Source: a virus (Duplodnaviria; Caudoviricetes). Taken from it: 64,000 nucleotides of DNA. The translations under genes and the position numbers were made by a program. This document shows, piece by piece, positions 498-64,000 of this stretch. Every line of letters starts with the position of its first letter. The first letter of the stretch is position 1. Under the pieces are notes generated by a model. That model did not search any database and was not told the DNA's origin. It worked only from the letters and a program-made list of their open reading frames with translations. The DNA lies in the IMG/VR virus record IMGVR_UViG_2706795976_000001, positions 34,137 to 98,136 of that record. One strand, written 5' to 3'.

Positions 498-908
498 ATG
501 GCCAAGCACAGTGTTCCCGGCTCGCATGCCGGTGCCCTCGACGGAGCTCTCGAGTGGCTGCGTAACGTAGCCACCCCCGAGGCCCGCGCCAAGCTCTACC
601 GCCTCCAGATGGCGATCACCCTCCTGCTCGTCGGTCTCGGCGTGCTTACCACGTCCTCGGCTGCGGTGTGGGTTGGTCTCGTCTCCGGCGTCATCACCTT
701 CCTGTTCGCGGCTGTACAGAAGAGCCCGGCGTGGCGTACGCTCCTGTACGCAGTCCTTGCTCCAGCGCAGGCCTTTGCTCAGTACTACGGCTACCACAAT
801 GACCAGCTCTGGCTGAACGTCGGAGCGGCTGTGGCAACCGTCCTGGGTCTCGAGCTTGCGGCTGAGAAGGCCAAGACGTACCCGGTCGACCCCCCGGCGG
901 CGGCTTAG
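498..908 (+). CDS. Holin
   Basis: 136 aa, about 4 hydrophobic segments, immediately after the lysin, AAGGA RBS. Confidence 0.75.
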   Translation: MAKHSVPGSHAGALDGALEWLRNVATPEARAKLYRLQMAITLLLVGLGVLTTSSAAVWVGLVSGVITFLFAAVQKSPAWRTLLYAVLAPAQAFAQYYGYHNDQLWLNVGAAVATVLGLELAAEKAKTYPVDPPAAA

Positions 909-911
909 ACC

Positions 912-1343
912 ATGTCCATCTTCGGGCGGATCCGAGAATCCCTGGAGACGGGCCAACCGGCCGAGCGCTGGTTCCGAGTTGTCTCATACCTGATGATCTT
1001 CCTCGCGGGAATCATTGCGGGGATTCGTGAGCCGGAGACGTTCGAGAACGCACTGAACCCGCTCTCCCTGTGGGCGTGCTCGGTATTCCTCCTCGTGGGA
1101 GGCCTGCTGGGATCGTGGGCGGTGCTGACCCAGAGATACATGTTCGAGAGGGTGGCAATCCCGTTTAGCGTTACGGGTCTACTGATCTTCCTTCTCGCGA
1201 TCTGGACCCTCGAGCTCCCGGCGACATGGACCAGGTACCTGATCACCGCAGTCTTCATCGCGCTCTGCTCCAAGCTGTTTGCTCGATGGTTCTTCACTAC
1301 CGCGCTGGTTCAGGAACAGCTAGATCGGCCGGAGAGGATCTAA
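912..1343 (+). CDS. Membrane protein (about 4 TM), lysis cassette
   Basis: Multiple hydrophobic helices; position in lysis cluster. Confidence 0.7.
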   Translation: MSIFGRIRESLETGQPAERWFRVVSYLMIFLAGIIAGIREPETFENALNPLSLWACSVFLLVGGLLGSWAVLTQRYMFERVAIPFSVTGLLIFLLAIWTLELPATWTRYLITAVFIALCSKLFARWFFTTALVQEQLDRPERI

Positions 1344-6827: not shown

Positions 6828-7687
6828 TGCACGTCTACTCGTTCCCGCCACCGGCAGCCCCGTTCGTTAAGCAGCAGATCAACAAGGTCGGCCGGTTCTC
6901 CTTCTCCAACCTGTCTCCTGCTGTACCGGTGACTGGTTGGTCTTCTGACGGAACCTCACCCGGCACTCTGGTTAGCGACAGCATCCTCGACGTTGTCGGC
7001 TCGAGCGGTCTGGTTACTGTGCACGCCCTCGTTCGCCTCGGCCGCAACTCCACGTCCGGCATCCCCACCGTCCAGCTCGTTGTAAACGGCGCGGTGGTCG
7101 ACTCAGTGGAGGCACAGCCCAACTCCACGCAGTTCGGCAACACAGACCCACTGCGCGGCAGGCCCTCCTGGCTGCAGTGGACTGGGTCCATCAACGCGGG
7201 CGACGACATCATGCTCTCCGCGCTACGCACAACCTCCACCACGGGGTATGTGAACGATGGATCCTACCTGCTGATCGAGCCTGGGAATACCACCTACACG
7301 ATGCAGCGAATGTACAAGAACACCTCGACGTTCAGCGTGCCTAACAGCCGAGCGATCGTCACTGGGTGGACTGCAGATGCGAAGTACCCCGGAAGCACGG
7401 TAAGCAGCAATCAGCTCGCCACTACGCTCAGCGGTACGGGTACTGCACGGGCGTACATCGTCAGCACTGGAAATAACTCCCCCGTTGAGGCATACCTCAT
7501 GATGGACGGAGTGGACATCGGCAGCGTTACCATCCCCGGCAGCGACGCGACCGGGTACTGGATCACCGTACCCAACGTCACATTCACCGGATCAAACCTA
7601 CTGAAGCTCGAAGCCCGGCGCACGAACACCTCGTTTACCCGGGCTATAGAGGACAACTCACCCGTCATCGAAGCATCCATCCCCTGA
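6827..7687 (+). CDS. Minor tail protein with two repeated beta domains
   Basis: Internal duplication (VTGWSSDGTSPGTLVS / VTGWTADAKYPGSTVS). Confidence 0.65.
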   Translation: MHVYSFPPPAAPFVKQQINKVGRFSFSNLSPAVPVTGWSSDGTSPGTLVSDSILDVVGSSGLVTVHALVRLGRNSTSGIPTVQLVVNGAVVDSVEAQPNSTQFGNTDPLRGRPSWLQWTGSINAGDDIMLSALRTTSTTGYVNDGSYLLIEPGNTTYTMQRMYKNTSTFSVPNSRAIVTGWTADAKYPGSTVSSNQLATTLSGTGTARAYIVSTGNNSPVEAYLMMDGVDIGSVTIPGSDATGYWITVPNVTFTGSNLLKLEARRTNTSFTRAIEDNSPVIEASIP

Positions 7688-62660: not shown

Positions 62661-63152
62661 TCAGTAGTGAGTTGCAATAGCCTTCGCCGGATCGATTAGG
62701 TAGGCGTGGCAAAAAGCTACTTGGTCATCAGGAAAGCGATGGTTGGCAGTTGTGTACTCGACTTGTCCAATCGTATCGGCCACGTACAACCGTATGGCAG
62801 ACTCACTCACTCCCAATCCGCGTAGAGTTGGGATATGGTGGCGTGTCTGGACATGAGTTTCACCTACCGGGGTAAAGTCCAGCCCGTGCAACAAATGTCC
62901 ATCCAAGTCATGCCAGAACCGAAACGCGTAGTTTGTTTCGTGATCGGGATAGATGGTTGCATCACTTCCGCCGGACCATACGGTAAGCGTGTCCGATTGG
63001 GCCCGGTAGTGCTCGCACAACGTTTCGTACGTGTTGGGGGCATCGTCGGCGATGGACAACGTTCGGCCGGTACGTGCGCTCGCACGCCTAGCGAGAACTG
63101 TCACAGCGCGCGCTAGTTCAGTCGACGCACGTTCGAATTCGATGTCAATCAT
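62661..63152 (-). CDS. Hypothetical protein, first gene of the leftward block
   Basis: APNTY...VWSGGSD.TIY...NYAFRFWHD..H...DFT..GE. Confidence 0.6.
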   Translation of the reverse strand: MIDIEFERASTELARAVTVLARRASARTGRTLSIADDAPNTYETLCEHYRAQSDTLTVWSGGSDATIYPDHETNYAFRFWHDLDGHLLHGLDFTPVGETHVQTRHHIPTLRGLGVSESAIRLYVADTIGQVEYTTANHRFPDDQVAFCHAYLIDPAKAIATHY

Positions 63153-63299
63153 TTTTCGATCCTCTCACAATTTGGGGAGTACTGGCAACCGTGGCGCGCG
63201 TACCGGGTGGCCGATACGCGACCATGGTTGTCAGTGACCCGTGTGCATAGGGACCATTATGCCCCTGACATGCGGATATCTGGTAGTGGGAGTCATGCC

Positions 63300-63900
63300 C
63301 TAGGGGAATTGTTACGCAACTGTGACCATTGCAGAGAACAGGGTATCCCTATGTCCTACCCCTAGGGTGAAACGTCACTGTGACTAATACATGTATACGT
63401 ATACTAGCTACCCATGGGTAGGGTAGGGTAGGGTACCCTACCCATGGCCGTGCCTATGGTACGGACGTACCAACAATCATCTACCTATTTAGAATTAAAC
63501 ATCTAACTATTTAAGATTGAACATCTAACTAATTGAATGGCACTATCGTACCAGTAAGGGCACCCTAACTAGTACGCCTGTACCATACTGCAGGCGTACC
63601 CCATGGGGGTATCGGCTCGGAATGGTACGCGCGTACCAAACCCGCTCGAGGGTACCCCCTAGGGGTATCGGCTCGGAATGGTACGGCCGTACAACTTAGG
63701 CAACCCTAACTAGTACGATCGTGCCAAACCTCGGGCACGGGTACCCCTGGGGGGTATGCGCCATACCCTAGGGGGGTACCGGTATCGGCGAGAATTGGTA
63801 CGCGCGTACAACTTAGGTCACCCTAACTAGTACGATCGTGCCAGAATCTGGCGGGGGTACCCCATGGGGGTATGCCCGTTTGGCACGGCCGTACCAAAAC
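63300..63900. repeat. Non-coding modular array of palindromic operator-like sites
   Basis: 5x TACCC-N5-GGGTA, 3x TWAGG-N4-CCTAA, 9x TRGYAC-N4-GTRCMA, 3x 22-bp AT-rich repeat, (GGGTA)4. Confidence 0.9.
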
Positions 63901-64000
63901 CCGAAAGTCGGTGCCGCCCAACGTCTTTCGCGGCCGACCGCCAAAACCGTTGCGGCGCTTGCCAACCCCCCTCCCCGGGGGTCGCCGCCGCGCGAAGCTC

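Follow-up and report, generated by a model that had tools for sequence, protein, structure and literature searches.

The right end of the genome and the array beside it

The stretch of DNA analysed here, referred to as the window, makes up the final 64 kb of a virus record 98,136 bp long. The query phage is a distant relative of Gordonia phages, with 54–55% identity in the primase/helicase and 50–57% in the small terminase. At the DNA level, neither the end region nor 24 kb of the window matched any of the deposited phages. A search for the integrase in bacterial genomes returned mostly 22–39% identity, with a few short stretches of up to 58%, and no close prophage. The last leftward gene starts at 63152, and the remaining 850 bp are non-coding up to the right cos end. 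The terminal stretch aligns to the right ends of phages BrutonGaster, OneUp, Smoothie, Bachita, and WilliamBoone. In a metagenomic relative, L115 (positions 903–1162, minus strand), right-end sequence is fused directly to a match of the query left end. That is, the contig reads through joined cohesive ends, and it follows that the query record begins and stops at cos. The record end is the true right cohesive end.

The first leftward gene beside the array encodes a 163-residue protein of no known function, with homologues in the early regions of Pseudomonas, Vibrio, Caulobacter, Bordetella, and Xanthomonas phages, whose genomes are ~39–45 kb. A homologue also adjoins the terminal box of L042, one of the loci described below.

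The sequence-only reading of this DNA reported five exact TACCC-N5-GGGTA palindromes at 63597–63872, and all five are present there, 128–403 nt from the right end (Table 1). In dinucleotide-preserving shuffles of the window, the mean number of matches is 0.02, and none of 100 shuffles reached five. The whole 98,136-bp genome has these five exact matches only; allowing one mismatch adds four scattered sites elsewhere and no more. Two degenerate copies had been reported as well. The one at 63357 stands as a weak site, whereas the one near 63296 shares only the core CCCTAGGGG. The latter core overlaps, at 63281–63299, a weaker version of the TTGAC(A/T) motif that, followed by a CCAC-type run, forms repeated promoter-like motifs before the leftward genes of BrutonGaster (L111), OneUp (L112), L113, and L115. 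Another element, ACGTCACTGTGAC, lies at 63372–63384 with a diverged copy at 63314–63333, and it is kept in BrutonGaster and, reversed, in OneUp.

Table 1. Features of the right end of the query genome (window positions)
Feature	Position	Strand	Remarks
163-aa gene, phrog_7806	62661–63152	−	First leftward gene beside the array
Degenerate box	63357–63371		Two mismatches; 7.9 bits on the CsoR-site matrix, against 21–25 for the five
40-bp palindrome of TACCC/GGGTA words	63408–63447		Inverted repeat I11
Nine pal16 copies (TGGTACG-N2-CGTACCA, 0–2 mismatches)	63457–63896		Starts: 63457, 63538, 63570, 63623, 63679, 63711, 63796, 63828, 63881
Three direct AT-rich ~22-bp repeats	63475–63540	+	Core TCTAACT; repeat family D5
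48-bp super-palindrome 1	63538–63585		pal16, TTAGG..CCTAA-type core, pal16; inverted repeat I2
CsoR-type box 1	63597–63611		Exact match; 23.1 bits
CsoR-type box 2	63653–63667		Exact match; 25.2 bits; equals copZA1 operator, 19/19 with flanks
48-bp super-palindrome 2	63679–63726		
CsoR-type box 3	63742–63756		23.0 bits; same 15-mer upstream of csoR in L179 and L210
CsoR-type box 4	63764–63778		Starts 22 nt after box 3; 21.2 bits; 15-mer upstream of csoR in L195
48-bp super-palindrome 3	63796–63843		87% identity to number 2 over 63-nt repeat D1
CsoR-type box 5	63858–63872		128 nt to right end; 22.6 bits
Last 46 nt before right cohesive end	63955–64000	+	Part of terminal stretch conserved in Gordonia relatives (alignment A1)

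Interspersed with the boxes are nine copies of a phage-specific palindrome of 16 bp, pal16, for which the rest of the genome has only four scattered loose matches (1–2 mismatches). Six of the nine copies make up three 48-bp super-palindromes around a TTAGG..CCTAA core. The pal16, super-palindrome, AT-rich repeat, and 40-bp palindrome classes all cluster at 63408–63896. The TTAGG..CCTAA cores were considered as IdeR iron boxes and rejected: the 19-bp iron box has 9 nt between its halves, and only 4 nt separate them here. Avoidance of a restriction site, or a decoy role for GTAC, was likewise dismissed, as the genome has 486 GTAC sites where 353 are expected and so shows no avoidance of them. 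The TCTAACT-core triplet of AT-rich repeats also occurs in BrutonGaster, ~300–360 nt from its end.

Repeat families D1, D3, and D4 are composite units of 41–63 nt with 61–90% identity. As read from the repeats, a composite unit of ~117 nt was duplicated to give part of the array, so that the five boxes are not independent events. When the boxes are aligned with one another and with those of three relatives, the TACCC and GGGTA halves and the flanking G and T are invariant, the spacer varies, and the mean column identity of the alignment is 50%. By this alignment, the half-sites are under selection. Invariant halves with a variable spacer are the pattern that CsoR recognition predicts. The composite units do offer a vehicle for carrying an ancestral box along passively, in which case the boxes would have no function of their own. 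This is very improbable, since all ten half-site positions are intact in five of five copies against the 50% column identity, and since the ancestral box is kept in three relatives and in the Cluster A mycobacteriophages described below.

Likeness of the boxes to CsoR and RicR operators

Tan et al. gave a consensus for streptomycete CsoR operators and found a TAC-N9-GTA dyad around the G-tracts to be essential (PMC3902906). All five boxes have this inverted dyad, in keeping with the published rule. The TACCC-N5-(G/A)GGTA formula that the sequence-only reading gave for M. tuberculosis RicR was checked in part, against the ricR promoter motif, printed as TACCCCGCTGGGTA (PMC3944814). Box 2 with its flanks is identical, at 19 of 19 bases, to the proven S. 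lividans copZA1 operator. For comparison, we assembled 36 loci around CsoR-family (PF02583) genes from Actinomycetes genomes. Exact boxes are present in 24 of them; there are 31 in all, and 30 of these fall in the ~100 bp preceding the gene. The four distinct box sequences of the phage are each found verbatim upstream of csoR-family genes in Actinomycetes genomes. With a scoring matrix built from 30 chromosomal csoR-upstream sites, the phage boxes score 21.2–25.2 bits and the chromosomal sites 19.3–28.5 bits, whereas the next best phage site scores 10.2. As sequence, then, the phage boxes cannot be told apart from real CsoR operators, and the earlier assignment to the actinobacterial CsoR operator form is borne out by the dyad, the copZA1 identity, and the csoR-upstream matches. 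Since the motif was first picked for its likeness to a known operator, there is still room for chance likeness.

The chromosomal type-2 CsoR operators (S. lividans csoR, copZA1, and copZA2, and the M. tuberculosis RicR regulon) have the same dyad, G/C tracts, and flanks as the phage boxes. They differ in arrangement. The chromosomal operators are single or paired, often 35–37 bp apart at csoR loci, and lie within ~100 bp of the start of a copper gene. In contrast, the phage has five, spaced 22–94 bp, at the genome end and with no copper gene in the genome. The sequence-only reading had remarked that no copper gene lies nearby. A six-frame search of the whole genome extends the remark, finding neither PF02583 nor an HMA domain (PF00403), and a phage-encoded CsoR or copper protein was rejected on this result. 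The boxes are not at the promoter of a csoR or copper-homeostasis gene but 445–706 bp upstream of the nearest start codon. Scans for consensus promoters and terminators and against Rfam gave nothing usable and no consensus promoter. The distance to the start codon and the missing consensus promoter make a simple operator role unlikely.

PF02583 is present in 278 of 301 genomes. In five whole genomes that we checked, there are one to five boxes each, a number that the phage matches. The two motif classes of the array differ in kind, since exact pal16 is present in just 1 of 151 Actinomycetes genomes and is therefore not a host operator. The PF02583 and pal16 genome tallies take in four unpublished genomes, G022, G027, G034, and G247, which contribute no quoted locus or sequence.

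Boxes at the right ends of other actinophages

A single box is found at the same place in BrutonGaster, OneUp, and L115, ~125–140 nt from the end; in the query, box 5 is the copy that aligns with it (alignment A1). The box of OneUp is flanked on both sides by an 18-bp palindrome, pal18, and that of L115 has pal18 on its left. In BrutonGaster, a LexA-type box is to the left and a pal18 variant to the right. No box was found in the last 1–1.5 kb of the right ends of nine further relatives, as follows: Smoothie, Bachita, WilliamBoone, Cucurbita, Abscondus, ClubL, Daredevil, Bantam, and Mollymur. All nine encode a homologous small terminase, and all but Bantam and Mollymur have a homologous cos end. 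Daredevil, Bantam, and Mollymur are more distant, and Daredevil has five pal18 copies beside cos. Since relatives with a homologous cos end do without the box, it is dispensable in the query lineage. The palindrome beside the box differs by phage, pal18 in the relatives being replaced by pal16 in the query. Such turnover would be expected if a phage protein, for example the small terminase, recognised the palindrome.

When IMG/VR was searched with a 14-base version of the box, at least 105 loci matched, and among the matches listed, 20 are within 35 nt of the locus end. The box pattern read backwards matched 49 loci, of which one was equally near an end. Many of the near-end matches are Cluster A mycobacteriophages. 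Next, we sampled Cluster-A-type right ends by their terminal 13-mer only, regardless of the box, and obtained 15 distinct ends. A box stands 33–35 nt from the end in all 15, and in 13 it is accompanied by one to five others within 300 nt. The terminal 300 nt of L328 contain six, and L087, L310, L340, and L009 are among the other ends with a box. L042, L057, and L062 have the box at the same 33–35 nt distance with unrelated flanks. In L006, a GC-rich viral contig, four boxes are found in 120 bp (7362–7480), with a rightmost DUF7178 gene on one side of them and the HNH and terminase genes on the other. L006 provides a second array of several boxes, in an unrelated phage. No copper gene is among the genes beside the multi-box sites of L006, L027, L038, and L012. 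One to six boxes at the right end are a common habit of other actinophages. In Cluster-A-type phages such as Mundrea, the same box is on the same side and upstream of leftward genes, in one to six copies in the last 300 nt. It differs in being fixed at 33–35 nt, whereas the nearest box of the query is 128 nt from the end and its boxes alternate with pal16.

In the literature that we searched, we found neither a description of CsoR-type sites in phages nor one of mycobacteriophage cos subsites. CsoR operators themselves are already known; the cos-proximal pattern of boxes is described in no paper that we found.

These positions raise a possibility that we consider on the unlikely side, although it is the main rival to the binding by a host protein proposed below, namely, that the boxes are a cos subsite for the packaging machinery of the phage (the small or large terminase, or the HNH protein) and that their likeness to CsoR operators is coincidental. 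All of the boxes are within 540 nt of the right end, the box is at 33–35 nt in 15 of 15 Cluster-A-type ends, and L042, L057, and L062 keep this distance despite unrelated flanks. There is also precedent, as the small terminase of HK97 reads a 15-bp site located 15–29 bp from the cut (PMC11331095). The query, Mundrea, and L006 have homologous large terminases (28%) and HNH proteins (36–39%), which would be candidate readers. The small terminase, however, is not common to the query and the distant box-bearing phages, nor are the two nearest right-end proteins. The small terminase of the query lineage has homologues in Gordonia phages only and none in Cluster A. Further, the nine relatives with a homologous small terminase, seven of them with a homologous cos end, have no box. 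In the query lineage, over 120 nt separate the end from the nearest box, and it is another palindrome that lies closer to cos. Co-evolution with a phage protein should make a site drift, as is seen for pal16 and pal18, whereas the box halves are invariant. Lastly, an exact match to a host operator, including the G-tract spacer, has low prior odds for a packaging site.

The 33–35 nt geometry of the Cluster-A-type ends would nevertheless suit a host factor and a packaging enzyme equally, and known packaging sites are instructive for both. In phage λ, cosB has an IHF site between terminase R sites, with an accessory role in the assembly or pausing of the packaging complex, and cosQ is a further site for comparison. 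Like the λ cosB and HK97 sites, the boxes are short sites, predicted in their case to be bound by protein, tens to hundreds of bp from the cut. In relatives, the box is between two palindromes that are terminase candidates, much as the λ IHF site is between terminase sites. There are two differences. The λ and HK97 sites are on the side packaged first, and the right end of the query need not be that side. Moreover, IHF is a bending protein, whereas the factor that we propose for the boxes is a metal sensor.

A candidate binder and a proposed role of the array

From the observed operator-sequence identity, location, conservation, and dispensability of the boxes, we infer a binder and an effect. 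As judged from sequence, we consider binding of the boxes by a host protein to be, on balance, slightly favoured. The most likely binder would be the host’s own CsoR/RicR-family copper repressor. The halves are fixed across phages whose packaging proteins have diverged much, while the adjoining palindrome drifts even among far closer relatives, and this is best explained by a slowly evolving host binder. That host CsoR/RicR binds an accessory array beside cos is, in our estimate, an evenly balanced proposal, which runs as follows. The copper-free repressor would sit on the boxes, each taking up two tetramers, the stoichiometry shown for S. lividans CsoR. A phage protein on the interleaved pal16 copies would join it in a protein–DNA array beside cos, and a rise in Cu(I) would cause the repressor to leave the boxes. 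The array would be an accessory, non-essential element. Its effect could be of two kinds: an architectural helper or roadblock for cutting and packaging at cos, or a copper-sensitive brake on the leftward genes that start just inside the array.

The interpretation of the boxes as CsoR/RicR sites offered by the sequence-only reading thus fares well at the level of sequence, while its context turned out to be different. It did not include that the array abuts the cos end, that it is interleaved with pal16, and that boxes are common at actinophage right ends. Given the last of these, the number of copies, which that reading had judged to exceed by far the needs of one promoter, points to a role at the end or in packaging as much as to transcriptional control.

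Borrowing of host regulators by phages has precedent. Operators for host repressors are known at the tox promoter of corynephage β, which binds DtxR, and in GIL01 and CTXφ, which bind LexA. As proposed for the boxes, a host repressor and a host signal are borrowed in these cases in place of phage-encoded ones. They differ in that each is a single operator overlapping the promoter of a known gene, whereas the array of the query is associated with neither a recognisable promoter nor a cargo gene.

Host binding might also take the form of a decoy, in which the array, with a number of CsoR sites equal to that of a host genome and multiplied by the copy number of the phage, drains free CsoR and switches on the copper-efflux regulon of the host. 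We regard this sub-case as improbable. The numbers are suitable, as the five sampled genomes have one to five boxes against five in the query and up to six in L328, and the boxes are not at a recognisable promoter. A broader version would make the right end a landing pad for host regulators, and in its favour BrutonGaster has three exact LexA boxes and one with one mismatch in the matching region. Against titration, csoR genes bear a box upstream and are probably self-regulated, which would buffer the loss of free repressor, and no benefit to the phage is evident. A sponge would need no fixed 33–35 nt distance, and the single box of some relatives would be a poor one.

The phage could instead encode the binder itself, as a regulator or a replication protein with no sequence relationship to CsoR, and the array would then act as an origin or early control region. 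The AT-rich triplets look like iterons, which makes the region a candidate replication origin, and triple repeats flanked by palindromes resemble an iteron origin. The array is upstream of a leftward gene block, and most right-arm genes have no known function. No replication initiator gene is near the AT-rich repeats, and the primase/helicase gene is 24 kb away. Of 13 right-arm ORFs searched with Pfam and PHROGs, none has a DNA-binding domain, apart from a weak Rho_N match, and the same searches of left-end ORFs were negative; PDB and a protein atlas returned nothing for the 163-residue neighbour or the DUF7178 protein. These two proteins, the nearest to the array, were considered as obligate partners of the box and rejected because neither tracks it across phages: Mundrea has boxes and neither protein, and Cucurbita has the DUF7178 protein and no box. 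In addition, a phage binder would need to be conserved across very distant phages. We therefore hold this explanation, too, to be improbable.

A more general proposal is that many actinobacteriophages place host CsoR/RicR operators, and some of them LexA-like sites, by the right end, so that the copper status of the host would be read at the phage genome end itself and would gate packaging, early transcription, or both. The five boxes of the query would be a strongly amplified case of a widespread way of using a host factor. We put this forward tentatively, and its full scope is rather less probable than not. We know of no earlier case of a phage reading a host copper sensor. If host CsoR does bind, this would be the first, acting at the genome end and not at the promoter of a cargo gene. 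It would be relevant to hundreds of well-studied mycobacteriophages as well as to the Gordonia-type query phage, and it would provide a simple link between metal stress and phage development or packaging. If a component of terminase binds, the boxes would define a cos subsite conserved across a large group of phages used as genetic tools. In either case, a conserved cos-proximal element of Cluster A phages is flagged here for which the literature searched has no describing paper.

Sites of LexA type recur among the relatives. The mycobacterial LexA box is TCGAAC-N4-GTTCGA (PMC3381160). The query genome has no exact copy anywhere. In BrutonGaster, the three exact boxes and the one-mismatch box are in the right-end non-coding DNA (L111:2429–2861; record positions 90928–91360). 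One of the LexA-type boxes takes the place of the relatives’ 18-bp palindrome, directly to the left of the CsoR-type box. Five relatives have one exact LexA-type site in mid-genome, at 42498 in OneUp, 43304 in Smoothie, 43505 in Bachita, 40798 in BrutonGaster, and 41973 in WilliamBoone, and this site may mark an SOS-controlled gene. Beside cos, in the last 200 nt of L113, L119, and L216 (Smoothie-type phages and Daredevil), pal18 contains a CGAAC-N4-GTTCG LexA/Cheo core with zero or one mismatch. By this likeness, pal18 could be a LexA-like terminase site or a true LexA site.
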